Part shown: piece after piece, positions 49,258 through 62,806 of the stretch | Layout: every line of letters begins with the position of its first letter | Numbering within the stretch: position 1 is the stretch's first letter | Assembly: GCA_049302035.1 (NCBI GenBank) | Contig: JBAQLR010000108.1 | Location: 4,886 to 68,885, forward strand | Reading direction: 5' to 3' | Length of the DNA: 64,000 nt | Source of the DNA: Syntrophales bacterium | GTDB taxonomy: Bacteria > Desulfobacterota > Syntrophia > Syntrophales > JACQWR01 | The notes under the pieces: model-generated | Told to the model about the DNA's origin: nothing | Database searches by the model: none | Seen by the model: only the letters and a program-made list of their open reading frames with translations | Program-made: the position numbers and the translations under genes

Positions 49258-49291
49258 CGACAACGCTAAAATTGATGACCTCGTAAAAAGT
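49258..49291 (-). repeat. degenerate relic of the cassette-junction repeat (CJR)
   Basis: cgacaACGCTAAAattgatGACCTcgtAAAAAGT versus the consensus gcaaaACGCTAAAtttcaaGACCTgacccccAAAAGT. It lies downstream of galE2. Confidence 0.4.
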
Positions 49292-49357
49292 AAATTCCCC
49301 CCTCACCCATTACGACACAGTCTCCCACGGGGAGGGAATTTGGGACTTTTTACGAGG
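49279..49357 (-). terminator. long imperfect hairpin (about 26-bp stem) downstream of galE2
   Basis: Arms are at 49279-49304 and 49329-49357. The outer 13 bp are perfect (CCTCGTAAAAAGT / ACTTTTTACGAGG). It overlaps the CJR relic. Confidence 0.45.
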
Positions 49358-49366
49358 CCATCAAAG

Positions 49367-50353
49367 TTAGAGGCCTGAACCATTATGCAACCGCTGCTCC
49401 CACCGCCAGGCATCGGCAACGATCGTCGGGAGATCGTCAAAGCGCGGTTGCCAGCCGAGCTGTTCCCGGATGCGTTCCGCTTTAGCCACCAGACTGGCTG
49501 GATCTCCCGGGCGGCGCGGCGCTTCCAGGACGGCAAAATCAACCCCCGTGACCTCTTTCATCACCTTGATCACCTCCCGGACACTGCTGCCCTGGCCGTA
49601 ACCAACATTAAACGTCGTTGACTCGCCGCCCCCCTCCAGGTACTTGAGCGCCGCCAGATGGGCGCTTGCCAGATCCTCGATGTGGATATAATCACGAATC
49701 CCCGTGCCGTCAGGGGTCGGATAGTCCGTGCCAAAAATGGCGACAGCTTCCCGCATCCCCAGCGCCGCCTGGCAGCAAACCTTGATCAGGTGCGTGGCAT
49801 CGGGCGTCCGCTGCCCCATCCGCGCCTGCGGATCGGCGCCCGCCACATTGAAATAGCGGAGCGCGACATACTTAATGCCGTGTGCCAGGGCCGTATCCCG
49901 CAGCATCCATTCACTCATCAGTTTGGAAGCGCCATAGGGATTGATGGGAACGGTGGGACTTTCCTCCGCAGCCACGCCGGTTTTCGGCAAACCATAAACC
50001 GCCGCCGTACTGGAAAAGATAAACCGCCGCACCCCGAAACGAACACAAGCGGTAAGCAGATTCAGGGTGTTGCGGGTGTTGTTGTTGTAAAACTTGAGCG
50101 GCTCCGTGACCGACTCCGGCGCCACGATGGAAGCGGCAAAATGCAGCACCGTGTGGACAGGATGCTCCTCAAAAAGCGTTTGTAACGCCGCCGTATCGCC
50201 AAGCTCTCCCACAACCAGCTCTTCGCCATGGAGCAATGCAGCGGGCGAACCAGTCGAGAGATTGTCAAAAACAACCACCCGCTGCCCCGTCTCCGCAAGC
50301 TGCCGCACCACATGGCTCCCGATATAACCCGCCCCTCCCGTAACCAGAATCAT
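49367..50353 (-). CDS. galE: UDP-glucose 4-epimerase (second copy)
   Basis: 'MILVTGGAGYIGSH' and 'YGASKLMSE'. The start is trimmed to the Met at 50353. Confidence 0.85.
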   Translation of the reverse strand: MILVTGGAGYIGSHVVRQLAETGQRVVVFDNLSTGSPAALLHGEELVVGELGDTAALQTLFEEHPVHTVLHFAASIVAPESVTEPLKFYNNNTRNTLNLLTACVRFGVRRFIFSSTAAVYGLPKTGVAAEESPTVPINPYGASKLMSEWMLRDTALAHGIKYVALRYFNVAGADPQARMGQRTPDATHLIKVCCQAALGMREAVAIFGTDYPTPDGTGIRDYIHIEDLASAHLAALKYLEGGGESTTFNVGYGQGSSVREVIKVMKEVTGVDFAVLEAPRRPGDPASLVAKAERIREQLGWQPRFDDLPTIVADAWRWEQRLHNGSGL

Positions 50354-50442
50354 AATTGTCCGCCCCTCATATAATTGCTCCCCTTGCTGCCATCCAGCCC
50401 CTCTTCTTACTCCCCGCAAAAGCGGGAATTCAGGATCATCCT

Positions 50443-52296
50443 TCACTGCGGCATGTATTCCGGCACGATCTCTTTCAGTTTGCTTTTTATGGCCTCGGCA
50501 TCAAACCTATCCGCGATGACGACTAATTCATCAACCGCCGCCGAAATTTCTGCGTAGGAAAAATGATGATTTCCCCGCAGCACCATGATCTTTTCGTGAT
50601 GCGTCGGAATAATCCCCTCGCCTTCCGTAATCAGTTCTTCGTAGAGTTTTTCTCCCGGCCGCATGCCTGTCGTCACAATTTCGATATCTTTGCCTGGTTC
50701 TAAACCGCTTAGTTTGATCATGGAATGGGCCAAATCGATGATGCGCATGGGCTCGCCCATTTTCAGGATGAAGATTTCCCCACCCTTGCCCATCGCGCCG
50801 GCCTGCAAAATAAGCTGGGCGGCCTCGGGAATGCTCATGAAATAGCGGGTGACATCGGGATGGGTAATCGTTATCGGGCCGCCGGCGGCTATCTGTTGGC
50901 GGAAAAGGGGAATAACCGAGCCGGAACTGCCCAGCACATTGCCGAACCGCACGGCAAGAAATACCGTTTTAACACTGCCATTGAAGCTGGAAGAAAGAAT
51001 TTCGCAAATACGTTTTGTCGTCCCCATGACATTGGTGGGTCGCACGGCCTTGTCCGAGGAAACAAGGATAAATTTTTCGGCGTTGCAGGCGATGGCGGAA
51101 AGCGCCGTGTTCCTCGTTCCCAGCAGATTATTATGGACCGCTTCCCAGGGATTTACTTCCTGCATCGGCACATGTTTATAAGCGGCAGCATGGAAAACAA
51201 CCTGTGGTTTAAATTCCTGAAAGACACGTTCTGTCGCGCCGGGGTTCCGCAAATCGACAAGATAGGCGCAAACATCTTTATAGGCTAATATTTCCCGACA
51301 TTCCATCTCCACCTTATAAAGATTTAATTCGCTGAAATCCAGCAGGGCCAGAGCTTGCGGCCGAAATCGTGCAATCTGCCGCACGAGCTCCTCACCAATG
51401 GAGCCGCCGGCGCCGGTAATCAAAACGCGCTTCCCCAGGAGGTAGCTTTCTATCTCCTTATTGTCCAAGCGGACTTCCTCCCTGCCGATCAAGTCGGCGA
51501 TGGTGACTTCTCGCACCATCTTCAGGGAAACAAGTCCATCAATTAACTCGGCAATAGCCGGCATGGTCTTAAAAGGCTTGCCGGTACTTTTACACGCGAC
51601 GACAATACGTCGCATCTGAGTGCTGTTGGCCGAAGGCGACGTTATAAGAATCTCATCAAAAAAATCGCGATACGATTTTATCTGATCAATATTCCCCAGC
51701 ACGCAAATGCCATGGATAGATCTCCCTATTTTTTCATGGTCATCGTCGAGCAAACCGATGGGGACAAGCTTCACGCCGGGGTTTATCAGCATTTCGCGGA
51801 TAACGCGCTCCGCTGTTGTGCCGGCGCCAATGAGCAGCAACCTTTTGCCATCATGATGTTTTTCGTTCAGAAATAAAGACGGCCGCGTCTGCTCATTAGC
51901 CAAAGCAATGCGGATTGCCAGACGCGACCCGGCTATAAAGAATAACGTCAGTATGTAATCCATGATCACAATGGAATGTGAAAACCCCGCCAATCCGAAG
52001 AGAAATGTTTTGACCAGCACAAGCAGGACGGAGGCAGACGAAGTAGCCTTCAGAATATTCAGGAAATCCACCAGGCTGGTGTACCGCCACATCCCCCGGT
52101 AGAGATTAAAGACTATAAAACAAACCATCTTCAACGGCACGGCAACAAAGATGGTCTGCCTGAAAGTAACAAAGTAATCTTCCGGGATTCGCCCTTCAAA
52201 GCGCAACGCGTAAGCAAGGAAATACGCCAACCCGCTGAGAACTGCATCAACGGCAAACATCACCCAAAAGCTCTTATTCCTAACCAGTTGCTTCAT
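50443..52296 (-). CDS. membrane-bound nucleotide-sugar 4,6-dehydratase (CapD/PglF/WbpM-like)
   Basis: Four N-terminal TM helices, two Rossmann regions ('LLIGAGTTAE' and 'VLITGAGGSIGEEL') and 'MGTTKRICE'. Confidence 0.85.
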   Translation of the reverse strand: MKQLVRNKSFWVMFAVDAVLSGLAYFLAYALRFEGRIPEDYFVTFRQTIFVAVPLKMVCFIVFNLYRGMWRYTSLVDFLNILKATSSASVLLVLVKTFLFGLAGFSHSIVIMDYILTLFFIAGSRLAIRIALANEQTRPSLFLNEKHHDGKRLLLIGAGTTAERVIREMLINPGVKLVPIGLLDDDHEKIGRSIHGICVLGNIDQIKSYRDFFDEILITSPSANSTQMRRIVVACKSTGKPFKTMPAIAELIDGLVSLKMVREVTIADLIGREEVRLDNKEIESYLLGKRVLITGAGGSIGEELVRQIARFRPQALALLDFSELNLYKVEMECREILAYKDVCAYLVDLRNPGATERVFQEFKPQVVFHAAAYKHVPMQEVNPWEAVHNNLLGTRNTALSAIACNAEKFILVSSDKAVRPTNVMGTTKRICEILSSSFNGSVKTVFLAVRFGNVLGSSGSVIPLFRQQIAAGGPITITHPDVTRYFMSIPEAAQLILQAGAMGKGGEIFILKMGEPMRIIDLAHSMIKLSGLEPGKDIEIVTTGMRPGEKLYEELITEGEGIIPTHHEKIMVLRGNHHFSYAEISAAVDELVVIADRFDAEAIKSKLKEIVPEYMPQ

Positions 52297-52342
52297 AAGC
52301 TATCGCCTTCCTTCGGCTGCTACCGCCCCTGCTATGAGCGCT

Positions 52343-52379
52343 GCCATAAAATTTTAAAGACCTGCCCCCCAAAGTTGCA
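52343..52379 (-). repeat. CJR copy 0 (diverged)
   Basis: gccataaaattttAAAGACCTGcCCCCCAAAGTTGCA. It contains the stop codon of ATPase 1. Confidence 0.55.
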
Positions 52380-53667
52380 TGTTGTTCGGGGTTTGAAAAT
52401 CAATTTGGTTGTTGTCGATCGTCCGGGCGGTTTCCAGGGAACGATTCAGGATCACGAATTTTTCCGGGTGGTAGGCGTCGATGAAGCTGCGGCCGGAGCG
52501 ACTGAGCCCGGGCCGATCCAGATCGGCGAATTTGACTTCCATGGCCATGATTTTCCCCGCCTGTTCGACCACGAAGTCCACCTCCCCACCGCCCTTGCTT
52601 CTCCAGAAATGGATGTCTGAAGTCAGCGGTATACGTTTGTAAAGCTCCGAGAACGCCCAGTTCTCCATCAGGGCGCCTTTGTCGGTTCTCAACAAAATGT
52701 CGTCCGAAAAGGCATTGAGCAACTGATTCCGTATCCCGTTATCGATAAAAAATATTTTAGGCGCCGTGGTAAGTTCCCGGCGCTTCCCGCCGGCAAAGGG
52801 CCGGACAACTTTGACGATATGGCTCTCCTCAAGAATTTCCACGTAGGCATGGATCGTGCCCGCGTCCACACGGCACACCGAAGCCAGTTCCGAAAAATTC
52901 ACAAGATTTCCGGTTTGTCCTGCCAGCAACGTGAGGAGTTTCCGGAAAACATCCACCCGTTTGATGCGGAAGAGATCCGATGCGTCTCGCAGTATCAAGG
53001 CTTCGGTCAGGTCGGAGAGCAGGCGAACCCGATCCTGGTCCGCGGGCGCAAGATAAACGGCCGGGTAACTGCCGTGGATCATCTGCCGGTGGAAAATTCT
53101 CTCGCATAAACTCCTCATGGCGACAGGATTCTCCGGGGTTTCCTGTCGCATCAATTCCTTGAGACTGAACGGCAGCAGCCGCAGCCGGTCCGCCCTGCCC
53201 GCGAGGGATTCCCTTGTCTTGCTCATCAAGTGGAAGGATGAAGAACCGGTCACCAGAACGGGGATGCCCAATCTGGCGTCTACCAACCCCTTCACGAAGA
53301 TGCCGGCGTCGGTCAGGTGTTGGGCTTCGTCAAGAAAGAGGGCACGGATGAAGGAATAGCGTTCCCGGAGCAGCGAAACAAGCTCTACAGCAACGCCGAG
53401 GACCGAGCGCAGGAGCGGGTCTTCCAGATTGAGGTAAAGAATATTGGGCGCAAGAGATTGGAGAAGGCGCCAGGCAAGGGTGGACTTCCCGGATTGACGG
53501 GGGCCGACGATGAGGAGGGCGCGATCTTTCCGGAGCGAAACCGGTTCAGGCTCGCGCAGAACATAGGTTCCGGGAAGATAGCGACGAATCAATCCGTCGG
53601 CCTGGCCAGGCTGCGTCAGCCAGGGATTGTATTGAAGTATCCGGTTTTGGACTTCGCCACTCAACAT
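52354..53667 (-). CDS. DUF4143-type AAA+ ATPase with a C-terminal PD-(D/E)xK-like motif (COG1373-like), paralogue 1
   Basis: Walker A 'GPRQSGKST' and Walker B 'LFLDEAQH'. The C-terminal motif is 'FWRSKGGGEVDFVVE...AMEVKF'. An alternative GTG start lies at 53673. Confidence 0.8.
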   Translation of the reverse strand: MLSGEVQNRILQYNPWLTQPGQADGLIRRYLPGTYVLREPEPVSLRKDRALLIVGPRQSGKSTLAWRLLQSLAPNILYLNLEDPLLRSVLGVAVELVSLLRERYSFIRALFLDEAQHLTDAGIFVKGLVDARLGIPVLVTGSSSFHLMSKTRESLAGRADRLRLLPFSLKELMRQETPENPVAMRSLCERIFHRQMIHGSYPAVYLAPADQDRVRLLSDLTEALILRDASDLFRIKRVDVFRKLLTLLAGQTGNLVNFSELASVCRVDAGTIHAYVEILEESHIVKVVRPFAGGKRRELTTAPKIFFIDNGIRNQLLNAFSDDILLRTDKGALMENWAFSELYKRIPLTSDIHFWRSKGGGEVDFVVEQAGKIMAMEVKFADLDRPGLSRSGRSFIDAYHPEKFVILNRSLETARTIDNNQIDFQTPNNMQLWGAGL

Positions 53668-53673
53668 GGCCAC

Positions 53674-53702
53674 TGTCTATCCTGTCTAATAATGATTGTC
53701 AA
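53674..53702 (-). promoter_or_regulatory. candidate promoter abutting the ATPase-1 start (leaderless layout)
   Basis: On the minus strand: TTGACA (53702-53697), 17 nt, TAGACA (53679-53674), 6 nt, ATG (53667). Confidence 0.45.
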
Positions 53703-53969
53703 CCATAATCAGCCATCATAATCGGGGATGTCTGCAAAAATAGGAATGGATAGGCGCTGTCTGTCCCCGGAAAAGCTTACAAGCTGTTTCAATACGTGTT
53801 TTCTTACACTGCCGTAGAGGGCTTTGTATATCAATCGAGGTAATTCGTCAAACCCTGTATTCCATTTTCTTCACTCGCACTATAGAAGTAAGCCCTTTAT
53901 CGAAGGGAACCATAGCGCTTTACATATCCCCCCTTTTGTGTTGGCAAAAGCGGTGAAGGTTTCTATTGC

Positions 53970-54090
53970 GAGACCTTTGAATTTTGTCATTTCGAGGAGC
54001 ATTAGCGACGAGAAATCTTAATGCTCGTGTATAGTTAAAGATTTCTCCCTTCGGTCGAAATGACAATATTGGCAGTTATTCAAAGGTCTC
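53970..54090 (+). mobile_element. 121-bp MITE, copy A
   Basis: Terminal inverted repeats GAGACCTTTGAAT...ATTCAAAGGTCTC. It is about 97-99% identical to the copies at 60830, 62414 and 62926. Confidence 0.85.
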
Positions 54091-54111
54091 AATGACGCCC
54101 TAATTAACCGT

Positions 54112-54152
54112 CCCCCCGGCAAAACGCTAAAAAGCAAGACCTGACCCCCAAG
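54112..54152 (-). repeat. CJR copy 1
   Basis: CCCCCCGGCAAAACGCTAAAAAGCAAGACCTGACCCCCAAG, 6 nt downstream of the sugar-transferase stop. Confidence 0.85.
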
Positions 54153-54158
54153 TACTCC

Positions 54159-54734
54159 TTAATGGTGAACATTCTCCGCCCGCGTAACCTTAAAAAACGT
54201 CAAAACCAGTATCTTCAAATCAAACCAAAACGAGCAGTGATGCAAATAATACTCATCAAACTCCACCTTTTGGGGAATCGGAATATCATCCCGGCCGTTA
54301 ATCTGCGCCCAGCCCGTGATCCCCGGAATTAATCGATGAACACCGCGTTCCGTCCGCAAGGCAATCAGATCATCCTGATTGAACAACGCCGGCCGGGGCC
54401 CCACAAAACTCATATCGCCCTTCAAAACACTCCACAATTGCGGTAATTCATCCAGACTTGATCTTCGCAGAAAGGGACCAATTGGCGTCAGAAACTGATC
54501 GGGATCCGATAACAAGTGCGTCGCAACCGCAGGCGTATCAATACGCATCGTCCTGAATTTCGGCATACGGAAAATACTGTTGTCCTTACCAACCCGATCA
54601 GACCAATATAAAAAAGGCCCTTTTGATGTCGTTTTCACCAAAAGGGCAACAATAATCATCGGAACGATTAAGACTAAAAGAAGAATTATCGTAGCAGTTA
54701 AATCAAATAATCGCTTAACGACCTTATAAACCAC
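54159..54734 (-). CDS. small polyprenyl-phosphate sugar-phosphate transferase (PglC/WbaP-C-terminal type)
   Basis: One TM helix, then '[25 protein letters not shown]...[21 protein letters not shown]'. The start codon is GTG. Confidence 0.85.
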
Positions 54735-54790
54735 CTGATTCCCGCATTCCCTACCTTGCTCTGTGGCTGGTTCAATCTTACAGATTGGAC

Positions 54791-54850
54791 CAAAACACTA
54801 AGCAACTATGAACTAAGAACTAATAACTAAAAAGACCTGACCCCCAAAAC
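54791..54850 (-). repeat. CJR copy 2, with a central 4 x 7-bp expansion
   Basis: CAAAACACTAAGC-[AACTATG AACTAAG AACTAAT AACTAAA; 54804-54831]-AAGACCTGACCCCCAAAAC. Confidence 0.8.
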
Positions 54851-54854
54851 TTGC

Positions 54855-55253
54855 TCACCACAAAACGTGCAACCCGTTTTTACGGTACGCTGAAAAGGCC
54901 TTGTCCTGAGATATGAGCGTTAGTTTGTGAGTAATGGCCTGCCAAATAATCAAACGGTCAAAGGGATCTTTGTGTTCCTTGCGCGGCAGGTTGTGAAAGG
55001 TGGCCGCATCTGTATCGGCAAGCGGCAGGATGTCAAAACCCGATTGGAGAACAAGTGCGGGGAAGTTCTCAGGCGTTACATTGCCCAGGTCAAGCCTGCC
55101 AATAGAATACTTGAGGGATATCTCCCAAAAGCTGACCACACTGACCAACACGGCCATGTCGGGGTTCCGGATACTAATCGCAGCTTTTTTCCCAAGCCGT
55201 TCGGGATCAAAAAGCGACCAGAGCAACGTATGTGTATCAAGAAGGAAACTCAT
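54855..55253 (-). CDS. vapC: PIN-domain toxin
   Basis: 'MSFLLDTHTLLW' and 'HKDPFDRLIIWQA' are VapC signatures. Confidence 0.85.
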   Translation of the reverse strand: MSFLLDTHTLLWSLFDPERLGKKAAISIRNPDMAVLVSVVSFWEISLKYSIGRLDLGNVTPENFPALVLQSGFDILPLADTDAATFHNLPRKEHKDPFDRLIIWQAITHKLTLISQDKAFSAYRKNGLHVLW

Positions 55254-55495
55254 AGAGACAGAAACTCATTCTCACTGATCTTGAAGTCATCCTTTAGGGA
55301 AAACGATGCCTTCCCGGCCAAGAGCCCTAACTTACGTTCCGGTTTGCGTTCGTAGTGCGAAAAGGGAACCAGCACGGCTATCTTCTCCTTCTTTTTGCCG
55401 AAGCTGATGACGATGTCCTCACCCTGTTGCACTAATTCAAGCGCCTTTGAAAAATGCGCTTTCACGTTACCAACTGTCATGGTATGCATAGCCAC
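55250..55495 (-). CDS. Phd/YefM-type antitoxin
   Basis: 81 aa. 'VKAHFSKALELVQQGEDIVI'. Its stop overlaps the vapC start. Confidence 0.7.
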   Translation of the reverse strand: MAMHTMTVGNVKAHFSKALELVQQGEDIVISFGKKKEKIAVLVPFSHYERKPERKLGLLAGKASFSLKDDFKISENEFLSL

Positions 55496-55514
55496 TTACC
55501 TCATTTTTTATTTC

Positions 55515-55543
55515 AGTATATGCTTTTCGTGACATGTTGTCAA
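55515..55543 (-). promoter_or_regulatory. candidate promoter of the phd-vapC cassette
   Basis: On the minus strand: TTGACA (55543-55538), 17 nt, TATACT (55520-55515). A GAGGT Shine-Dalgarno sequence precedes the ATG at 55495. Confidence 0.55.
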
Positions 55544-55584
55544 GAAAATGAAGGCAGTGCTATAGTACACTCAGCACTATCTTT

Positions 55585-55624
55585 CCCCGGCAAAACGCTA
55601 AAATGCAAGACCTGACCCCCAAAA
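55585..55624 (-). repeat. CJR copy 3
   Basis: CCCCGGCAAAACGCTAAAATGCAAGACCTGACCCCCAAAA. Confidence 0.85.
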
Positions 55625-55631
55625 TCATTGC

Positions 55632-55925
55632 TTAAAGGGTGGCCGAATTGAGCCAGTCTTCCAGGTTGACGTTCAAGGCCATGTTCCTCTTTTTCAGCAG
55701 CAGGAGAAAGTCCCAGGTGTCCAAATCCAGCAGGCGGCAGGCTTCTTCAACGGAAAGATCGCCGGTCTGATACTTCGCCAAAAGCCTCTCCTGCCTGTCT
55801 TCTGCAAACCCTTTTTGCAGGATTTCCCGCAGATACGCCGACTTATCGAGGCGCATATCTTTGACAAACGAGGTTAGCTCCTTCAAAAACTCTTCAGGTA
55901 TCCTCACGGTTGCCGGTTTCAACAT
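55632..55925 (-). CDS. UPF0175-family antitoxin-like protein
   Basis: 'VRIPEEFLKEL...LAKYQTGDLSVEEACRLLDLDTWDFLLLLKK' fits the UPF0175/COG2886 pattern. Confidence 0.55.
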   Translation of the reverse strand: MLKPATVRIPEEFLKELTSFVKDMRLDKSAYLREILQKGFAEDRQERLLAKYQTGDLSVEEACRLLDLDTWDFLLLLKKRNMALNVNLEDWLNSATL

Positions 55926-56475
55926 TTCCCATCTCCTTCAGTATCAATAAAGCTTCAGCAATGATATCCGGTGCATACTGTCCCTCAATGCGCATCTTTT
56001 CAATGGCTGCTTTTGCCAAAGGTTTTTCGATGCATCCATGCCGGTACAGCTCCGTGGCGATCTTCGGGGATATGATAAAGGGCAGATTCAGAAATCTGCA
56101 TGTTTTAATGGCCTTCCCGTCGTCCGTGGCCAGGATCGCGCCTTCGCCCATCTCCTGTGCGAGCCTGATTGCCGCCCATTCCCCCTTGCCAAGCGTAAGG
56201 GGAGGCTTGCGATCCGGTAATTCTTTGGAGAATATTTCAATGTTTCCCTGTGAAGTCATGACGGATATACTTTTCGCATCGGGAAACTTCTCGATCGTAT
56301 CCTGATTGACCACTTCTTCGAATACCGCCGCCGGGATGATTGAGTCAAGACGAAAAACCAGAAACTGTAGAAACGCTAAAATGTGTATTGTTAAAAGGGT
56401 GCGGGCTGATTCGGAGAGCTTTTCCGGCTGGCCGGCAGCCCACAGGACAATGTGGGTATCGAGCAGCAGCTTCAC
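55894..56475 (-). pseudogene. chimeric ORF: VapC N-terminal fragment fused through a CJR half-site to an N-terminally truncated COG2405/DUF3368-like PIN protein
   Basis: Residues 1-29, 'MKLLLDTHIVLWAAGQPEKLSESARTLLT', are a VapC N-terminus. The linker 'IHILAFLQF' is encoded by the half-repeat at 56369-56384. The remainder, 'IPAAVFEEV...LGKGEWAAIRLAQE...ILATDDGKA', is DUF3368-like and lacks its first Asp segment. Confidence 0.55.
56369..56384 (-). repeat. CJR half-site (distal half only)
   Basis: AGAAACGCTAAAATGT matches the repeat up to its centre, after which the similarity stops. Confidence 0.6.
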
Positions 56476-56799: not shown

Positions 56800-56839
56800 C
56801 CCCGGAAAAACGCTAAATGTTCAAGACCTGACCCCCAAA
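56800..56839 (-). repeat. CJR copy 4
   Basis: CCCCGGAAAAACGCTAAATGTTCAAGACCTGACCCCCAAA. It contains the mazF-like stop codon. Confidence 0.85.
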
Positions 56840-57186
56840 TAGAGGCTGTTCTTGAGCGCCATGTCCACCTTTTCCATGAGCTCATCTGAGAGAGTCGCAA
56901 GTTTCGACCCGGTCAACCGCCCCTTATCGAGGGTGCGGATCTGTGAGAGATTGACGATGGAATCCTTTTTCAGGCCGGAATCTTTGCCGATGACTACGCA
57001 GATTGGGTAAGTAGCTTTTTTCTCGGAATATTCGGTGATGACGGCGACGATGGTCGTGGGTGAATACCGATTGCCGACATCGTTCTGAACAATCAGCACC
57101 GGCCGGGTTTTTCCGGTTTCGCTTCCCACCACTGGGTCGAGCGCTGCGTAATAGATTTCTCTTCTTTTGACCTGCAGAGGAGTCAT
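56821..57186 (-). CDS. MazF/PemK-family toxin
   Basis: 'REIYYAALDPVVGSETGKTRPVLIVQNDVGN'. Confidence 0.85.
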   Translation of the reverse strand: MTPLQVKRREIYYAALDPVVGSETGKTRPVLIVQNDVGNRYSPTTIVAVITEYSEKKATYPICVVIGKDSGLKKDSIVNLSQIRTLDKGRLTGSKLATLSDELMEKVDMALKNSLYLGVRS

Positions 57187-57461
57187 GGAGCAACCTCGGG
57201 GAGATTTTCGGCGTCAGAGAATTTGAAATCCTCACAGATACGGATGTTTTCCTCGGCGAGATCCTGATAGGCTGCTTTCATTCGTGCCTCGAGATCCTGC
57301 CTGTCGAGCTGCATTAATTTTTCCTCGATGGATTCCCGCACGAGTGTGGAAACATTTTTCCCTTCCCGGGTAGAGGCTTGGGAAAGCCTGTTCTTGATCT
57401 CTGCAGAGAGTTGAATATTGAGCCGCGTTTTTTCCTGCTGTGCCGTTGAGAGCATTTTCAC
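57183..57461 (-). CDS. ribbon-helix-helix (CopG-like) antitoxin
   Basis: 'RLNIQLSAEIKNRLSQASTREGKNVSTLVRESIEEKL'. It overlaps the toxin start. Confidence 0.65.
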   Translation of the reverse strand: MKMLSTAQQEKTRLNIQLSAEIKNRLSQASTREGKNVSTLVRESIEEKLMQLDRQDLEARMKAAYQDLAEENIRICEDFKFSDAENLPEVAP

Positions 57462-57542: not shown

Positions 57543-57589
57543 CCCCGGCAAAACGCTAAATTTCAAGACCTGACCCCCAAAAAGTTGCA
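57543..57589 (-). repeat. CJR copy 5 (closest to consensus)
   Basis: CCCCGGCAAAACGCTAAATTTCAAGACCTGACCCCCAAAAAGTTGCA. It encodes the last 10 codons of ATPase 2. Confidence 0.9.
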
Positions 57590-58734
57590 ATATTTTGCCA
57601 GGGGACTATCGAAATGTTTTTGTTGGTCAGGGCTTTATCTCCGCCATAAATTAGCCGGGCCGGCGCTTCCGGCTGCCCGGCCAGCTTCAGCCAACGCTTT
57701 AGTGACGTGAAGGAATCCGGAGCGATTGTCTGCCCCGATTTAATTTCGATTGCCTCGAGTTCCTCGCCCTCTTCCCGGATCAGATCGATTTCCAGACCTT
57801 TACTATCTCTCCAATAAAAGAGATTTGCCGGCAGCCCCTCGTTGAAGCGGCCTTTTAAAAATTCGGTCACCACAAACGTCTCAAATAGCGCTCCCCGCTG
57901 GGCATGAAAGCGAACCTGTTCCGGGGTGTTAATTCCCAGCAACCAGGCCGCCAAACCGACATCGCAGAAATACAACTTGGGTGCCTTGATCAAGCGTTTA
58001 TTGAAGTTCCGGTGATGGGGGCGCAGCAGATAGATCAGATAACTCGCCTCCAGGACGGATATCCACGCTGCCGCGGTATTATGCGTAATGCCGCAATCGG
58101 AGGCCAGTGATGACAAGTTCAGAATTTGACCGGTGCGGGCGGCGCACATCTTGACGAAGCGCTGGAATGCCGAGAGATCGCGGACGTTGATCAACTGTCG
58201 CGCATCCCGTTCCACATAGGTGGCGATGTAGCCGGAAAACCAGTCGCCGGAAAAAATGTCACGGTCGTACAGCGGGGGGTACAATCCCCGCACCAGCAGC
58301 TCTTCAAGAGAATCAGGCAGCTGCCGAACAGCGGCAAGCTCTTCGGCGGCAAAGGTCAGCAGGTGTATCATCCCGACACGCCCCGCTAATGATTGAGTAA
58401 TGCCCGACAGCAGCCCAAATTGCTGAGAACCGGTCAATACAAACATACCGGGGATGATTTTCTCATCCACTTTTGTCTGGAGATAGGAGAAAAGGTGCGG
58501 CGCACGCTGAGCTTCATCCAGGATCGCGCCGTCACGAAAAGCGGCCAAAAGACCTCGGGGGTCGCTTTCCGCCGTGGCTCTGACATCGGGATCTTCCAGC
58601 GACAGATAGGGTTTTTGGGGGAAGGTCAGTTTTGCCAGCGTGGTCTTGCCGGATTGACGCGGCCCCGTAATGGCAACGATGGGAAAGCCTTTTGCCAGAC
58701 GGAGCAGGGCTTTTTGTGCTGTTCTCGGTATCAT
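57556..58734 (-). CDS. DUF4143-type AAA+ ATPase/nuclease-like, paralogue 2
   Basis: Walker A 'GPRQSGKTT' and Walker B 'AILDEAQR'. The C-terminal motif is 'YWRDSKGLEIDLIRE...AIEIKSG'. Confidence 0.8.
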   Translation of the reverse strand: MIPRTAQKALLRLAKGFPIVAITGPRQSGKTTLAKLTFPQKPYLSLEDPDVRATAESDPRGLLAAFRDGAILDEAQRAPHLFSYLQTKVDEKIIPGMFVLTGSQQFGLLSGITQSLAGRVGMIHLLTFAAEELAAVRQLPDSLEELLVRGLYPPLYDRDIFSGDWFSGYIATYVERDARQLINVRDLSAFQRFVKMCAARTGQILNLSSLASDCGITHNTAAAWISVLEASYLIYLLRPHHRNFNKRLIKAPKLYFCDVGLAAWLLGINTPEQVRFHAQRGALFETFVVTEFLKGRFNEGLPANLFYWRDSKGLEIDLIREEGEELEAIEIKSGQTIAPDSFTSLKRWLKLAGQPEAPARLIYGGDKALTNKNISIVPWQNIATFWGSGLEI

Positions 58735-58740
58735 GGGTGC

Positions 58741-58791
58741 ATATTATGCGGAGTTGCACATATTGTCAATACAATTTACAATATGTGCAAC
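58741..58791 (-). promoter_or_regulatory. candidate leaderless promoter plus a perfect 14-bp inverted repeat
   Basis: On the minus strand: TTGACA (58769-58764), 17 nt, TAATAT (58746-58741), 6 nt, ATG (58734). The inverted repeat GTTGCACATATTGT (58753-58766) / ACAATATGTGCAAC (58778-58791) overlaps the -35 element. Confidence 0.5.
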
Positions 58792-58792
58792 T

Positions 58793-58824
58793 CAAAACGC
58801 TAAATTTCAAGACCTGACCCCCAA
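58793..58824 (-). repeat. CJR copy 6
   Basis: CAAAACGCTAAATTTCAAGACCTGACCCCCAA, directly after the PIN-gene stop (58825-58827). Confidence 0.9.
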
Positions 58825-59223
58825 TTACTTGCTAATTGCAGACCAGAATCCTCTTGGGGTCACGATTTTCGTGTCCTTATAGGCAAGCAGACATAATAAA
58901 TCCTGGTCTCCCGTGATTATGTATTCTGCCAATGAACGGTGAGCGAGGCCCAACACATGAATATCGTTCTTATCTCTGCACAATGACTCATCTAAATCAT
59001 CGGTCCCGGAAACAAGACAATTTTCTCTCAAATACGACACGATCAACCGGCATTGCGGTAAGGGGAGCTTGATTTTTCGCTCTAAATTTGTTGATACTTC
59101 CGCTAAAATCGCTTCACTCACGATGACATCAAACCGGTCAAGGCAGAGCTCGAAAACTGCGCTGCAGAGCCCACGACTGGCAAAGGCAGCAATGATCACA
59201 TTGGTATCAAGAATGACCTTCAT
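58825..59223 (-). CDS. PIN-domain toxin
   Basis: 'MKVILDTNVIIAAF' and 'YIITGDQDLL'. Confidence 0.8.
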   Translation of the reverse strand: MKVILDTNVIIAAFASRGLCSAVFELCLDRFDVIVSEAILAEVSTNLERKIKLPLPQCRLIVSYLRENCLVSGTDDLDESLCRDKNDIHVLGLAHRSLAEYIITGDQDLLCLLAYKDTKIVTPRGFWSAISK

Positions 59224-59438
59224 GAAATCATGTTGAATATATCTTCATCAGACAATATGCCCTGCGCCTCTGCAAATGGCAGTACCATATTTTTTAACCT
59301 GCGAAAGCGGTAAATAGCCAAATACCGTTTTAAGGATTCGCGCACGATATCACTCACCGGTTTATTCTCGTTTCTGCTTAATTCCTGCAACCCTTCTCTC
59401 ATGTCATCGGGCAGCCGGATAGTAAGAGTTTGATTCAT
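59220..59438 (-). CDS. ribbon-helix-helix antitoxin
   Basis: 'LTIRLPDDMREGLQELSRNENKPVSDIVRESLKRYL'. Confidence 0.65.
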   Translation of the reverse strand: MNQTLTIRLPDDMREGLQELSRNENKPVSDIVRESLKRYLAIYRFRRLKNMVLPFAEAQGILSDEDIFNMIS

Positions 59439-59453
59439 AGAGCACCTCCATTC

Positions 59454-59489
59454 GTGTTACAACGTAACACGCCCTGGTATTGCTGTCAA
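59454..59489 (-). promoter_or_regulatory. candidate promoter and operator of the RHH-PIN cassette
   Basis: On the minus strand: TTGACA (59489-59484), 17 nt, TACGTT. The palindrome GTGTTAC-aac-GTAACAC (59454-59470) overlaps the -10. A GGAGG Shine-Dalgarno sequence precedes the ATG. Confidence 0.45.
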
Positions 59490-59519
59490 CAAAAAACCGC
59501 GCAATAACATCGGGACAGA

Positions 59520-59559
59520 CAAAACGCTAAATTTCAAGACCTGACCTCCAAAAATTGCA
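59520..59559 (-). repeat. CJR copy 7
   Basis: CAAAACGCTAAATTTCAAGACCTGACCTCCAAAAATTGCA. It contains the ATPase-3 stop codon. Confidence 0.9.
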
Positions 59560-60679
59560 TTTCTGACAACCAGTTTTGAGCGGTGCGGATTTCCAGGCCG
59601 TCGGGATAGGTTTTTTCCCTTTTGAGTTCCTTGACAATCTGGATTTTTTTTGCGCCGGGCAGATATTTCTCGAATAAAGAAAATTTCGCACGACCCTCCG
59701 CATCGCTCCATTTAACTTCGAGCATCAGTGCCGGCTTATCTTCCCTGGTGAGAAAAAAATCAATCTCCCTGCCGTCCTTGTTTCTGAGGTAATAAACGTT
59801 CCATTTTTCGCCGAGGCAATCCTCGCGGAAATGCATTTCTTTCAGCAAGGCACAGGCAACAAGATTTTCCAGCTTCATTCCCGGATCATCCGGCGCCTGC
59901 CCGGTATCGTAAAAATAGTATTTGGGCGCCTTGAGAATGGACCGGGAAATGTTGCGATGAAAAGGGGGTACCTTGAAAACGACATAGAGTGTTTCCAGAA
60001 TAGTCAGCCATCTCTTGACGGTCTTGTCCGAACACTGAAGATCCTCGGCCAGCGAGCTGTATGATATGGGACTGCCAATCTTTCTCCTCAGAAGCTGGAT
60101 GAGTGTTTCAAACGAAGTTATCTGCTGCACATTTTCCAGATCGATCAAGTCCTGCTTCAGAATGATGTCCAGATGGCTTCTCTTCCAGCGATTGTAATAG
60201 GACGCATCGCTTTCCAGAAAGGGCTCAGGAAATCCGCCGATCGCCAAAAGCCTGTCAAGTTTTTCCTCCAGTTTATCTGGCCCCAGCACACTTTTAATTT
60301 CCTTCAGATCAAGGGGGTGGAGCCGAAACTCAAAAAACCTTCCCGCCAGGGAATCGCCTGCCTTTTTAAAGACATCCAGCTTTGCGCTTCCGGTCACCAC
60401 CAGGGAAGGCGGGATGCTTTCGGCATCGTAGATGCCCTTCAGCCATGATTTCCAGTTCTTGAGTTTGTGAAGCTCGTCAAAAATCACCAGATCTTTGGAG
60501 CGATCCCATGACTTATCCAGCAGACTCAGGCGGTGTTCGGCATAATCATAATTGAAATAATCGAAATTATGACTGAGCATCTTTGCCAGGGTCGTCTTGC
60601 CGACCTGTCTCGGGCCGGTGATCAGGACGATTTTTCTTTTAAGATCTTTCTGAATGTATTCTTCGAGGTATCTCTTCAT
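59534..60679 (-). CDS. DUF4143-type AAA+ ATPase/nuclease-like, paralogue 3
   Basis: Walker A 'GPRQVGKTT' and Walker B 'VIFDELHK'. The C-terminal motif is 'YYLRNKDGREIDFFL...MLEVKWS'. Confidence 0.8.
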   Translation of the reverse strand: MKRYLEEYIQKDLKRKIVLITGPRQVGKTTLAKMLSHNFDYFNYDYAEHRLSLLDKSWDRSKDLVIFDELHKLKNWKSWLKGIYDAESIPPSLVVTGSAKLDVFKKAGDSLAGRFFEFRLHPLDLKEIKSVLGPDKLEEKLDRLLAIGGFPEPFLESDASYYNRWKRSHLDIILKQDLIDLENVQQITSFETLIQLLRRKIGSPISYSSLAEDLQCSDKTVKRWLTILETLYVVFKVPPFHRNISRSILKAPKYYFYDTGQAPDDPGMKLENLVACALLKEMHFREDCLGEKWNVYYLRNKDGREIDFFLTREDKPALMLEVKWSDAEGRAKFSLFEKYLPGAKKIQIVKELKREKTYPDGLEIRTAQNWLSEMQFLEVRS

Positions 60680-60685
60680 GCGGCT

Positions 60686-60728
60686 ATTCTATCCTGCATT
60701 CCGAAAAAGTCAAGACTTTTTCGGAATG
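60686..60728 (-). promoter_or_regulatory. candidate leaderless promoter plus a 15-bp inverted repeat
   Basis: On the minus strand: TTGACT (60713-60708), 16 nt, TAGAAT (60691-60686), 6 nt, ATG (60679). The inverted repeat CATTCCGAAAAAGTC (60697-60711) / GACTTTTTCGGAATG (60714-60728) is centred on the -35 element. Confidence 0.5.
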
Positions 60729-60741
60729 GCTGCCTGTTCCT

Positions 60742-61113
60742 ATGGACATTATAGCCATGCAGCATTCAGGTTTAAGTGTGAGACAAATTGCCCGTAAACT
60801 GGGCATTCACAGAAATACGGTGAAGAAGCGAGACCTTTGAATTTTGTCATTTCGGGGAGCATTAGCGACGAGAAATCTTAATGCTCGTGCATAGTTAAAG
60901 ATTTCTCCCTTCGGTCGAAATGACAATATTGGCAGTTATTCAAAGGTCTCGCAGCATATTGAGAACAAAGCGTTTCCTCATTACCATCAGTCTAAACGAG
61001 GCGTAAGCATTCTGGAACCATATAAGCAAATCATCAACGATTACCTTGACCAGGATGACTACCAGGCAACCTGGGTTTTCGATAGAATCAAAAGGACCGG
61101 ATATCCCGGTTTC
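60742..61113 (+). pseudogene. IS21-family istA 5' remnant, split by a MITE and truncated at a CJR
   Basis: It reads 'MDIIAMQHSGLSVRQIARKLGIHRNTVKK', then the MITE, then 'HIENKAFPHYHQSKRGVSILEPYKQIINDYLDQDDYQATWVFDRIKRTGYPG'. This is an IstA-type HTH N-terminus and nothing follows it. Confidence 0.6.
60830..60950 (+). mobile_element. 121-bp MITE, copy B
   Basis: Same element and orientation as copy A. The flanks GAAGC / GCAGC look like an imperfect 5-bp duplication. Confidence 0.85.
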
Positions 61114-61153
61114 CAAAACGCTAAATTTCAAGACCTGACCCCCAAAAGTTGCA
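61114..61153 (-). repeat. CJR copy 8
   Basis: CAAAACGCTAAATTTCAAGACCTGACCCCCAAAAGTTGCA. It contains the ATPase-4 stop codon. Confidence 0.9.
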
Positions 61154-62282
61154 GTTTTTCTATTAAGGTGGGGAGGCTCACAAATGTTACTTCTATCCCT
61201 TTGTAATTTCTGCTAAACGGTTTTTCGACATCCGTGGCCGCCACCAGGGAATCTCCTTCGGGATAACGTTCACGAAACAGTTTCAGATTACCCGGATCGA
61301 AATCGGTCGCCGACCATTTGCATTCAATCGCCACCGGCGGCTTTCCTCTTGCGGCGATCACAAAATCAATTTCATGACCGCGCTTATCACGCCAGTACAT
61401 CACATTCCTCATCTGGAGACGTCCCTGAATCTCGTTCAGGACATAATGCTCCCAGAGCAGCCCCCGGTCTTCCCGCCGGAGTTCACGCCATCCCCGGTAA
61501 TAACAGACAAATCCCGTATCAAAGCCATACACTTTGGGAGCGGAAATGATCTCCGCCGCCTTGTTGCTGCTGAAGGGCCGGACAATGTGCGCCACGTAGG
61601 TCGCCTCGAGAACGGCAAGGTAATTGGCAATGGTCGGCCGGCTGACCTCGCAGGGTCCGGTAAAGCGTGATGCCTCAAAAATGCCGCCGCTCTGCGCCAT
61701 CAGCAGCTCGAAAAACCGCTGGAAGGCGTGTCGACGGCCCAGATGAAAGAGCTCTTGAATATCTTTCGCCCAATAACCGTCCACCCAATCCTGGAAATTC
61801 CGCTCCGGCACGGTCTCGGATAAATAGAACGGCGGCATTCCCCCAAAAAGCAGCCGCTTCGCCAGATCGGCATCCCCGAAATCGGCAAGATCCTGCACCA
61901 GCATGGGGGTGAGCCAGAGGGACTCCTTGCGGCCCGTCAGCGTATCCTTGAATTTGGCGGATGCGCCCAGGGTGGAAGAACCGGTGGCAAGAATCCGCAC
62001 ATCCGGATAGTGATCTGCAGCGATCTTGAGAAGCTCCGAGGGATTTTGCAGACGATGGATTTCGTCGAGGATGATCGTGCGCCCCCGGAGGGGTCGAAGA
62101 AACCCTTCGGCATCTTCCAGCATCGCCCGAACACGGGGCAGCTCGCAATCGAAGTATTCAGCATCCGTAAGACTCTGGCTCAGAAAGGTCTTCCCCACGC
62201 GCCTGACCCCGGAGAGCCAGATCACCGATCGCCTTTCCCAAGCCTTGCCTATCTGTTCCAACCAGAATGATCTTTTCTTCAT
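61128..62282 (-). CDS. DUF4143-type AAA+ ATPase/nuclease-like, paralogue 4
   Basis: Walker A 'GVRRVGKTF' and Walker B 'IILDEIHR'. The C-terminal motif is 'MYWRDKRGHEIDFVI...AIECKWS'. Confidence 0.8.
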   Translation of the reverse strand: MKKRSFWLEQIGKAWERRSVIWLSGVRRVGKTFLSQSLTDAEYFDCELPRVRAMLEDAEGFLRPLRGRTIILDEIHRLQNPSELLKIAADHYPDVRILATGSSTLGASAKFKDTLTGRKESLWLTPMLVQDLADFGDADLAKRLLFGGMPPFYLSETVPERNFQDWVDGYWAKDIQELFHLGRRHAFQRFFELLMAQSGGIFEASRFTGPCEVSRPTIANYLAVLEATYVAHIVRPFSSNKAAEIISAPKVYGFDTGFVCYYRGWRELRREDRGLLWEHYVLNEIQGRLQMRNVMYWRDKRGHEIDFVIAARGKPPVAIECKWSATDFDPGNLKLFRERYPEGDSLVAATDVEKPFSRNYKGIEVTFVSLPTLIEKLQLLGVRS

Positions 62283-62288
62283 GCAACC

Positions 62289-62317
62289 ATAATTTCACAT
62301 AGTGACACTAATTGCAA
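62289..62317 (-). promoter_or_regulatory. candidate leaderless promoter of ATPase 4
   Basis: On the minus strand: TTGCAA (62317-62312), 17 nt, AATTAT (62294-62289), 6 nt, ATG (62282). Confidence 0.4.
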
Positions 62318-62335
62318 GTAAAACATCATTTAGTA

Positions 62336-62348
62336 CAAAACGCTAAAT
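62336..62348 (-). repeat. CJR half-site (distal half only)
   Basis: CAAAACGCTAAAT, after which similarity to the consensus ends. Confidence 0.6.
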
Positions 62349-62413
62349 CACCGCGAAGCAGGCCCGATAGTTTTGGTTGAGGCAAACCCATACGGCGCCC
62401 GGCTTCCTCTTGT

Positions 62414-62534
62414 GAGACCTTTGAATAACTGCCAATATTGTCATTTCGACCGAAGGGAGAAATCTTTAACTATGCACGAGCATTAAGATTTCTCGTCGCT
62501 AATGCTCCTCGAAATGACAAAATTCAAAGGTCTC
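62414..62534 (-). mobile_element. 121-bp MITE, copy C
   Basis: Reverse orientation relative to A and B, flanked by a direct CTTGT duplication. Confidence 0.9.
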
Positions 62535-62770
62535 CTTGTGACAAGCCAAGATTGCGCACAGCCTTAGTGATTTCAATCACGAGCCCAGACTTGATTTTGA
62601 GTTTATCGGCCTCAGGCAAGTCAAGATCGGTTTGCGGTTCACGGACGTTTTCCAGCGGTCTAAGAAATCAGTAACGGTGCGTTTCATGGATGACTAAATA
62701 CACTATGTGTGTATTTTCTGCAAGGACTATTTACCTTAGACAGGTGTTACTTCTCAGTGCGTAGCTCCCA

Positions 62771-62806
62771 CCCCGGCAAAACGATAAATTTAAAGACCCC
62801 CAAAAC
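62771..62806 (-). repeat. CJR copy 10 (variant with a 5-nt internal deletion)
   Basis: CCCCGGCAAAACGATAAATTTAAAGAC-----CCCCAAAAC. Confidence 0.75.

Follow-up and report, generated by a model that had tools for sequence, protein, structure and literature searches.

Gene units with nothing in common, standing in line and each closed by the same short repeat, raise the question of whether they form a divergent integron or a cassette system of another kind. We addressed it in a window of 64,000 nt from a Syntrophales bacterium (GCA_049302035.1, contig JBAQLR010000108.1, positions 4,886-68,885), for which the original prediction had offered both readings. A repeat of about 45 nt occurs from 52.3 to 62.8 kb in ten co-oriented copies and three half-copies, which alternate with unrelated gene units; positions 1-49 kb of the window hold none. 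On the minus strand the repeat reads GGGGGTCAGGTCTT, five variable nucleotides and TTTAGCGTTTTGC, and the plus-strand spelling of a full copy is the A' block AAAACGCTAAA, 4-5 variable nucleotides and the B' block AAGACCTGACCCCC. As read from the sequence, the two conserved arms around this variable centre are not inverted repeats of one another, and the stop codons inside the repeat serve different reading frames. A 31-mer of the repeat has a chance expectation of about zero (0 in 100 shuffles), and a 17-mer was found nine times against 0.15 expected. The predicted sites proved real to within a few nucleotides, all copies share one orientation, and every one, as had been claimed, sits at or overlaps the 3' end of a gene, or pair of genes, on the minus strand. 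The repeat copies and gene units are as follows.

49255..49281, minus strand: degenerate repeat copy 3' of polysaccharide genes; A block with 1 mismatch, B block decayed
52349..52372, minus strand: B-half copy without A block (GGGGGGCAGGTCTT + TAAAATTTTA), at the 3' end of the 439-aa ATPase gene
52354..53673, minus strand: AAA_14 + DUF4143 ATPase, 439 aa (Pfam), between PglC-like and PglF-like polysaccharide genes
54110..54151, minus strand: full solo copy after the PglC-like gene
54159..54734, minus strand: Bac_transf (PglC-like) sugar transferase (Pfam), with a repeat copy on either side
54790..54847, minus strand: solo copy with a 30-nt insert between block B and a diverged block A (TTAGTGTTTTGG)
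54855..55495, minus strand: PhD/VapC (PIN) cassette (Pfam)
55585..55622, minus strand: full solo copy
55632..56475, minus strand: UPF0175 gene (Pfam) and neighbouring ORF
56370..56383, minus strand: A-half copy (TTTTAGCGTTTC), fused into a truncated PIN gene
56800..56838, minus strand: full solo copy, 5-nt spacer variant
56821..57461, minus strand: RHH/PemK (MazF-like) cassette (Pfam)
57543..57580, minus strand: full solo copy; the ATPase frame ends inside it at TAG
57556..58734, minus strand: AAA_14 + DUF4143 ATPase, 392 aa (Pfam)
58791..58824, minus strand: full solo copy
58825..59438, minus strand: RHH/PIN_3 cassette (Pfam)
59518..59551, minus strand: full solo copy, 1 mismatch in B; the ATPase frame ends inside it at TGA
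59534..60679, minus strand: AAA_14 + DUF4143 ATPase, 381 aa (Pfam)
61112..61145, minus strand: full solo copy
61128..62282, minus strand: AAA_14 + DUF4143 ATPase, 384 aa (Pfam families from the strain-contig annotation)
62337..62349, minus strand: A-half copy, fused to the remnant of another ORF
62771..62803, minus strand: last copy, B shortened to GGGGGTCTT (5-nt deletion), 1 mismatch in A

Pfam thus confirms the mixed gene content first proposed for these units, namely four AAA_14 + DUF4143 ATPases, PhD/PIN, RHH/PemK, RHH/PIN_3, UPF0175 and Bac_transf. The ORF beside UPF0175 (55894-56475) had no Pfam match in the window search; its counterpart on the matching strain contig carries a precomputed DUF3368 annotation. 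Promoter-like sites of the gene units lie outside the repeat. All copies in the window are solo. They are spaced through a hypervariable island, within and next to a polysaccharide locus, that consists of self-promoted units of the toxin-antitoxin and DUF4143-ATPase kinds.

The repeat is the terminal inverted repeat of an element of about 1 kb that encodes a RAYT-type Y1 (HUH) transposase. The ends of this element are inverted copies of GGGGTCAGGTCTT plus about 15 subfamily-specific nucleotides (GAAAT-TTAGCGTTTT in the window), with about 27 nt common to both ends of one element. Block B is present in 78 of 80 metagenomic loci encoding relatives, 44-90% identical, of the protein from two related loci (L056 and L020; L-numbered contigs, such as L176-L180, are related loci). 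Inverted copies flank the transposase gene in 46 of the 54 homologue loci that have at least 160 nt on both flanks, with median distances to the protein match of 50 nt on its start side and 33 nt on its end side, and the L056 gene lies between perfect inverted copies of the window's own repeat subtype. The protein matches NCBIfam REP_Tyr_transpos (88.3 bits, cut-off 80) and Pfam Y1_Tnp and carries an extra C-terminal tail resembling a helix-turn-helix, for which the HTH matches are weak. No RAYT gene was found within the 64-kb window. Relatives occur in MAGs assigned to several phyla, and the motif is conserved to the base in many species, which suggests that recognition by a protein persists.

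In Syntrophales-like MAGs the repeat takes two further forms. It occurs near core genes as REPIN-like hairpin doublets with a 29-bp stem, which fold at -33 kcal/mol (z = -12); spacer bases co-vary in 15 perfect doublets, and two doublets lie 3' of tRNA-Ser. It also occurs as co-oriented solo copies in toxin-antitoxin and defence arrays, three of which contain a RAYT gene: in L089 three small gene units come after the gene, with a co-oriented copy closing each of them, and L108 and L056 are alike. On contigs with at least three copies, the majority orientation accounts for 77 of 85 solo copies. Among truncated tandem copies, 39 of 47 stop 7-9 nt into block B, near ACC|TGA of the other strand. 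The original prediction had held that genome-wide scatter downstream of unrelated core operons would mark a REP-like or terminator-associated element, and the motif does lie on many contigs of related genomes, beside tRNA-Ser and purA-, xseA-, lpxK- and SRP54-type genes; together with its identity as a Y1 transposase end-repeat, this makes it REP-like. The same spacers are crowded by other small repeats, including a 123-nt MITE, a second REP type and AGTGCTGAG runs.

Strain contigs that are 97-99% identical differ in which units stand between copies and in the order of these units, through gains, losses and rearrangements whose breakpoints lie at the copies. The VapBC unit (98.4% identical) has three different downstream neighbours: PglC in the window, the 392-aa ATPase in L176-L179, where this unit (98% identical) occupies another position than in the window, and the 384-aa ATPase in L180. 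The 439-aa ATPase gene has an 82% identical copy in L065, and the 384-aa ATPase is 91.6% identical in L043. L173 matches the window only downstream of the copy at 61112..61145 (from 61109), its upstream part being unrelated and repeat-free, and L086 parts from the window inside the copy at 62771..62803, at CGA|TAAAT. Internal homology endpoints fall within 15 nt of a copy in 10 of 15 cases (P about 8e-9 under a uniform null), a clustering that is to some degree expected because the repeat fills most of the short intergenic spacers. Where the window has half-copies at 52349..52372 and 62337..62349, the corresponding junctions (in L176, and in L043 and L180, respectively) hold both blocks. The variable 5-mer tracks neither flank cleanly. 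The cassette idea therefore holds in part: cassette-level variation bounded by the repeat and a recombinase-type gene physically linked to copy clusters, here RAYT in related loci, had both been named as checks, and both were found.

The array shares much with sedentary chromosomal integrons and CALINs: it is co-oriented and rich in toxin-antitoxin modules, with one repeat per cassette, its ORFs extend into the repeat, and cassettes are gained, lost and moved among close strains. Nevertheless, we rejected a divergent integron with unusually short, asymmetric attC sites, which we regard as highly improbable. On neither strand did the junctions fold better than shuffled sequence (z -1.5 to +0.8), and the repeat is no imperfect palindrome and lacks the R''/L''/L'/R' organisation. 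There is no enrichment of the proposed upstream box partly complementary to GCGTTTTGC: over 118 solo copies, the longest complementary match in the 60 nt upstream was on average 4.33 nt long, as compared with 4.46 and 4.47 nt for two control regions. GTTTTGC does not match GTTRRRY. Neither the window nor 823 kb of related loci yielded an integron-integrase-like gene in a tblastn search with an XerD query that does detect IntI4, and no recombinase family recurs among 147 neighbouring ORFs. Unlike attC sites, the same 45-nt sequence is conserved in many species, also stands singly near core genes and ends a Y1 transposase element; its units have their own promoter-like sites, and gene orientation relative to it varies. 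It is no more credible that a host recombinase acts in trans on a site co-opted by chance as a transposon end. The two arms around a variable centre and the lack of an adjoining recombinase at most copies recall the XerC/XerD-dependent pdif modules of Acinetobacter plasmids, in which small modules, often toxin-antitoxin pairs, also lie in variable order between short recombination sites. However, the arms here are neither mutual inverted repeats nor related to dif, the copies are all direct whereas the 28-bp pdif sites alternate in orientation, and the Y1 transposase is the only protein consistently linked to the repeat. We also consider a regulatory element common to the units (promoter, operator, terminator or RNA-stability signal) very unlikely. 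The repeat is invariably found at gene boundaries, a REP in other bacteria can make the transcript upstream of it more stable (PMC3184786), and doublets after tRNA-Ser and between co-directional genes could be hairpin terminators; yet the genes have no fixed strand relative to the repeat (opposite on both sides at 33 junctions, same-strand on both at 22, the rest mixed or without a call), solo copies are unstructured and without terminator-like signals, and there is no Rfam match.

The reading we prefer, and judge on balance somewhat probable, is that these solo copies of a REP/RAYT end-repeat are sites of RAYT-catalysed unit exchange. A RAYT encoded elsewhere in the genome would nick one strand at C|T sites within the repeat, with CGC|TAAA and ACC|TGA as candidate plus-strand sites, proposed from five half-copies and by analogy with a distant enzyme. 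Nicks at two successive co-oriented copies and strand exchange would release a single-stranded circle of one unit and one repeat copy, which might re-insert by joining either a different copy or a secondary, TTTA-like site, the latter producing half-copies. The products would look like those of integron cassette shuffling, but the reactions would be those of REP and IS200/IS605 elements. As a precedent, TnpA_REP from E. coli cuts single-stranded DNA at C|T, passes through a covalent intermediate and carries out strand transfer (PMC3333891). The sole RAYT studied biochemically requires a REP hairpin for binding (PMC3333891), and solo copies cannot form a hairpin, which counts against this mechanism, as do the absence of a RAYT gene from the 64-kb window and the loose association of the variable 5-mer with the flanks. 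The main rival is homologous recombination between copies: the repeats would be passive REP-like litter, dead derivatives of RAYT elements inserted strand-specifically into the spacers of an island variable for other reasons, and the re-orderings would come from ordinary RecA-dependent or slipped recombination between the 45-nt and other small spacer repeats. This is a real possibility, though on the unlikely side. The dispersal near core genes and the crowded spacers fit it, as do breakpoints spread over more than a single phosphodiester. In L176 the repeat is absent from three of six unit junctions, so that some rearrangements proceed without it, and there is one possible 'empty site' (TTTTTGGGGGGGAAGATAG). 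Y1 transposition is strand-specific (PMC3333891), so independent insertions could share an orientation too. Against litter, half-copies joined to non-repeat DNA (window 56370, 62337 and 52349; L086), which are compatible with a break at TTTA|GCG, are impossible by repeat-by-repeat homologous exchange. Moreover, a repeat of 45 nt offers RecA little length for efficient recombination, and still such closely related strains show several orders; RAYT genes lie inside such arrays, and the motif is kept to the base.

Among known systems, the closest likeness is to REP/BIME-RAYT systems (REPtrons and REPINs of Escherichia, Pseudomonas and Stenotrophomonas), in which a Y1 HUH gene lies between inverted short repeats that are also dispersed extragenically as hairpin doublets and singlets. 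Here, by contrast, a single arm is no small GTAG-headed palindrome and folding is confined to the doublet, the transposase has roughly double the length and a C-terminal HTH-like tail, relatives come from MAGs placed in several phyla, and singlets form long co-oriented arrays delimiting gene units in strain-variable order, for which our literature search found no description for REPs. IS200/IS605 'peel-and-paste' elements and their non-autonomous PATE derivatives possess a Y1 catalytic domain of related type; their enzymes recognise the two ends on a single strand and in one orientation, and the excised product is a single-stranded circle, matching units between direct solo copies and the strand bias. 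Their ends are subterminal hairpins without terminal inverted repeats, whereas the autonomous element here has such repeats, of about 27 nt, and a hairpin is lacking in the solo copies. Rolling-circle HUH elements, IS91/ISCR among them, share the HUH chemistry and single-end capture of adjacent genes, but their enzymes use two catalytic tyrosines and distinct ori and ter ends, and they form no arrays with every unit closed by the same repeat.

In summary, of the two readings first offered, the integron falls, and a previously undescribed site-specific cassette-accretion system stands as a live, though not proven, reading. The re-ordering of units between end-repeat copies suggests a second, integron-like route to gene-cassette arrays.

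The array in the window is built from a repeat of two conserved blocks. On the + strand these read AAAACGCTAAA and then AAGACCTGACCCCC, with 4-5 variable bases between them; on the minus (coding) strand the same sequence reads (T-rich)-GGGGGTCAGGTCTT-NNNNN-TTAGCGTTTTGC-(G-rich), in which the blocks are named B and A, in that order. The copies named in the original prediction were confirmed. Every copy in the window has the same orientation, shuffling gives an expectation of about zero matches, and the first 49 kb hold nothing comparable.

Copies of the repeat in the window (one shared orientation)
54110-54151, full copy
55585-55622, full copy
56800-56838, full copy
57543-57580, full copy
58791-58824, full copy
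59518-59551, full copy
61112-61145, full copy
54790-54847, copy with a 30-nt insertion between the blocks
62771-62803, copy with a 5-nt deletion
56370, half-copy, first (+ strand) block only
62337, half-copy, first (+ strand) block only
52349, half-copy, second (+ strand) block only
49255, decayed copy

Each copy lies over or immediately past the 3' end of one gene, or a pair of genes, on the minus strand. The stop codons of three ATPase frames fall inside the repeat in different frames, and its conservation is therefore at the DNA level. Pfam searches bore out the gene list proposed from the sequence: four AAA_14+DUF4143 ATPases, PhD/PIN, RHH/PemK, RHH/PIN_3, UPF0175 and a PglC-like transferase. 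No Pfam match was obtained for the ORF adjoining the UPF0175 gene, whose counterpart on a strain contig carries the annotation DUF3368. Three strong promoter-like sites occupy the interval from a copy to the start codon that follows. Outside the array, the window is ordinary chromosome, with a trp operon, glycosyltransferases, MurJ and UbiD. A block B variant with GGGGTCTT in place of GGGGTCAGGTCTT recurs at window 62771-62803 and in the related loci L029, L047, L082 and L183, and corresponds to the loss of one unit, 5 nt, of an internal GGTCA/GGTCT direct repeat.

When one genome per species was scanned for the exact pattern, 84 stretches were returned from about 50 metagenome-assembled genomes (MAGs), with several contigs per MAG. 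The hosts are mostly Syntrophales, Syntrophus, Smithellaceae and 'Deltaproteobacteria' MAGs, with a minority in MAGs labelled as other phyla; viral contigs gave no match to the motif. These loci contain about 140 solo copies, 33 B-only copies, about 11 copies whose B and A are split by an insertion of 9-60 nt, and 15 perfect palindromic doublets (B-A-loop-A'-B'), whose variable bases co-vary between the arms and which fold into 29-bp stems (z = -12). On contigs with at least three solo copies, 77 of 85 share the majority orientation. Neighbours of the repeat include core genes (adenylosuccinate synthetase, exonuclease VII, LpxK, an SRP54-type GTPase and transketolase) and numerous MNT/HEPN, PIN, HepT and DUF4143 genes, and in two MAGs doublets lie directly downstream of tRNA-Ser(GGA). 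Genes on both sides are on the opposite strand to the repeat at 33 junctions and on the same strand at 22, the remainder being mixed or without a call. Genes thus run in either direction with respect to the repeat, which excludes it as a simple promoter or terminator; terminator-like signals also coincide with no copy. In several species, a polysaccharide gene region of PglC-like, PglF-like and DegT-type genes hosts arrays of toxin-antitoxin (TA) and ATPase genes (window 49367-54734; related loci L005, L016, L029, L041 and L065), and in the window an ATPase unit stands between the PglC-like and PglF-like genes.

Four of the related loci encode Y1_Tnp proteins. In one of them, L056, perfect inverted copies of the repeat seen in the window lie on both sides of the gene for a 301-aa protein, and the stop codon of this gene falls inside block A. 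This protein has a Y1_Tnp domain with weak C-terminal helix-turn-helix matches in Pfam, and it scored 88.3 bits against the NCBIfam model for REP-associated tyrosine transposases (RAYTs), NF047646 (cut-off 80); its 40% identical relative from L020 scored 57.8 bits, below that cut-off. A PDB sequence search with the RAYT gave no match. The two proteins were aligned and metagenome contigs were scanned, from which the best 80 loci (44-90% identity) were taken. Block B is present in 78 of these 80. Where each flank spanned at least 160 nt (54 loci), it occurs inverted on both sides in 46, on one side in seven and on neither in one. Its median distance is 50 nt ahead of the start of the protein match and 33 nt beyond the end. 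In 57 elements, the left and right ends form inverted repeats of about 27 nt. The entire protein family shares the outermost 13 nt, while the next 15 nt or so vary by subfamily, yet are identical at both ends of one element. Arrays and RAYT occur together on one contig of MAG JBAWYD01; at L089, three small gene units come after the RAYT and a co-oriented copy ends each of them, and L108 and L056 are similar.

A REPtron consists of a RAYT gene between inverted repeats together with dispersed doublets (REPINs) and singlets (PMC3333891, PMC5581495, PMC3337134). The same components are found here, namely a Y1 HUH transposase, flanking inverted copies and extragenic dispersal that includes hairpin doublets. 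The repeat is thus a REP/RAYT end-repeat, a known kind of element, in a lineage and form without description in the literature searched. A REP-like element scattered near core genes is what the original prediction had named as evidence against its own reading, and this architecture is of that type. Whereas the classic REP unit is a short imperfect palindrome headed by GTAG or a similar tetranucleotide, a single arm here has no internal palindrome and begins with GGGG. IS200/IS605 elements have subterminal hairpins and no terminal inverted repeats, in contrast to the inverted repeat ends described here. A shorter RAYT subfamily (233-241 aa, at L004 and L025) was considered as the partner of the repeat and rejected, because the inverted repeat on its two sides, GGGGGACAGCTCCCTATT, is a different one. 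This second REP-like repeat, GGGGGACAGCTCCCTATT / GGGACAGCGCCCCATTA, lies at L004:1600-2460 and L025:2000-3200, and also at some of the strain-contig unit junctions that do not carry the main repeat (L176:768-800 and 2900-2940).

The original prediction had placed the array close to integrons or to clusters of attC sites lacking an integrase (CALIN), and this did not hold. attC sites span about 57-141 nt and are imperfect palindromes, in which R'' pairs with R' and L'' with L' when the single strand folds. Single-strand folding of four junctions, each on both strands (eight folds), gave z values of -1.54 to +0.81 and was no more favourable than for shuffles. The upstream complement to GCGTTTTGC, initially read as R''-like, was no more frequent at 118 solo copies than in control regions. 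GTTTTGC stands where the R' core would be GTTRRRY, a mismatch that had been pointed out from the outset. An intI gene beside the array is a hallmark of integrons, though not required for CALIN. A XerD query, validated against PDB 1A0P and able to detect IntI4 at 3.6e-22, had no tblastn match in the window (E<=1), in agreement with the initial reading, and none in 186 related loci totalling 823 kb (E<=0.01). No recombinase family recurred when 147 representative neighbour ORFs were scanned with Pfam, and an Rfam search of 48-64 kb (E<=5) gave nothing relevant. On these grounds, we reject the integron/CALIN reading. The array does share with integrons co-oriented cassettes with one site each, which vary between strains.

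This variation was seen by comparing the window with contigs of closely related populations, recovered by exact-protein look-ups. The contigs obtained in this way were short, apart from one of 42.5 kb whose end falls inside the array. What follows the PhD/VapC (VapBC) unit (window 54833-55578, 98.4% identical) takes three forms: in the window it is the PglC gene, in strain contigs L176-L179 a 392-aa ATPase unit (window 57574-58790, 98% identical), and in strain contig L180 a 384-aa ATPase unit, which begins at window 62347. In the window, the 392-aa ATPase unit stands three units upstream of VapBC, so its position has changed. The neighbours upstream of VapBC also vary, L176 has extra units absent from the window (a 77-aa and 59-aa pair and a 395-aa ATPase), and in L029, a more distant MAG with a pglC 86% identical, an MNT-type unit replaces VapBC upstream of pglC with the repeat at the junction. 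Units have thus been re-ordered between near-identical strains at the copies: among 15 distinct internal endpoints of homology, 10 fall no more than 15 nt from a copy, positions that make up 7.2% of the region (P ~8e-9 under a uniform null, which overstates the significance because the repeat fills much of each short spacer). Two further endpoints are at the edges of miniature elements (MITEs). At three of six unit junctions in L176 the repeat is missing, one of them resembling an empty site, or else a deletion between two runs of G. Two things are unusual: whole self-promoted gene units are set off by solo copies in long co-oriented arrays, and those units change order between near-identical strains. 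L052 was considered as a cassette inserted in pglC and rejected, its sequence being two different transferase fragments with no clean insertion. An IS200-type transposase gene with a typical end hairpin (127 aa, NCBIfam transpos_IS200) lies upstream of VapBC at L178:135-518.

The MITE-like element is about 123 nt long, with terminal inverted repeats GAGACCTTTGAAT...ATTCAAAGGTCTC, and has four copies in and around the array.

Copies of the MITE-like element in the window (98-99% identical)
53968-54090
60828-60950
62414-62534
62926-63046

It is polymorphic between near-identical strains, the 60828 copy being absent from L173 and the 62926 copy, which occupies the region upstream of an antitoxin-like gene (63271-63561), from L085 and L086. 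An 82% identical copy is found in L004. Runs of short repeats of the AGTGCTGAG / GACTGAG type adjoin the repeat or interrupt it between B and A (L044, L082, L083, L176:2880-2930 and window 55560-55580), and some form long hairpins. At the right edge of the array, a DDE_Tnp_1 (IS4-type) transposase fragment (window 63650-64000) abuts the gene pair at 62950-63561, and the array may continue beyond the window.

How the units move can be approached from the broken copies. Half-copies at window 62337, 56370 and 52349 and in strain contig L086 are joined to unrelated DNA; TTTA immediately precedes both A-halves (62337 and 56370) and ends both B-halves (52349 and L086). All four fit one break between TTTA and GCG on the minus strand, that is, between CGC and TAAA on the + strand. 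A survey of half-copies across the 84 genome loci was noisy, returned mainly the 5-nt deletion variant GGGGTCTT and did not confirm this breakpoint. Truncated tandem copies (flank + GGGGTCA) lie upstream of full copies, and 39 of 47 end 7-9 nt into block B, adjoining the step between ACC and TGA on the + strand. At the outer boundary, a stretch of 5-9 flanking nt followed by GGGGTCA(G)(G) is duplicated one to three times ahead of a full copy, upstream of block B (L102, L098, L109, L113, L121, L134, L142, L018, L069 and others). Solo copies show this, and so do autonomous elements at both of their ends. These duplications may be the footprint of repeated cleavage and rejoining. The E. coli enzyme TnpA_REP cleaves only single-stranded DNA, needs a CT dinucleotide, which it cuts between the two bases, and has one site class cut between TGCC and TGAT; it forms a covalent intermediate, strand transfer is possible, and its authors proposed that single-stranded circles are excised between two cleavage sites (PMC3333891).

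The half-copies, the truncated copies and this precedent suggest a scheme in which a RAYT, acting in trans, would use solo co-oriented copies as recombination sites to excise, insert and re-order gene units. If two successive co-oriented copies were nicked, a single unit would come free together with one repeat, and it would change place by rejoining at another copy. It is the mechanism we prefer, put forward tentatively and at less than even odds. Against it, solo copies are free of the hairpin that the E. coli enzyme needs, no RAYT gene lies within the 64-kb window, and half of the L176 junctions lack the repeat. In the main competing explanation, the repeats are passive and recombine with each other homologously or by slippage; it accounts for the imprecision of the breakpoints but leaves the half-copies fused to non-repeat DNA unexplained. 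Also against the RAYT scheme, the 5-nt spacer follows neither the left nor the right unit consistently, with few informative pairs and a mixed outcome. For the other half of the original prediction, a previously undescribed cassette-accretion system, the strain-level reordering with endpoints near copies and the RAYT genes inside solo-copy arrays speak in favour; we consider this reading less likely than not. Under the RAYT scheme, the cassette platform would be functionally like an integron but mechanistically unrelated, with single-strand HUH chemistry in place of a tyrosine recombinase acting on folded attC.

What REPs and RAYT transposases do for or against their hosts has reportedly been debated since the 1980s, and integrons are, to our knowledge, the sole well-understood system so far that stacks and shuffles single-gene cassettes. 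If the repeats only form passive litter, REP-type repeats can mimic integron-like arrays, and arrays should be screened against RAYT ends before CALIN are called. If the RAYT scheme is true, REP singlets would have a testable function and, with RAYTs, gain a concrete role in structuring genomes. The tag GGGGTCAGGTCTT...TTAGCGTTTT would then locate hypervariable defence/TA islands in metagenomes, and anaerobic syntrophs and their neighbours would have a second, independent path to cassette arrays.
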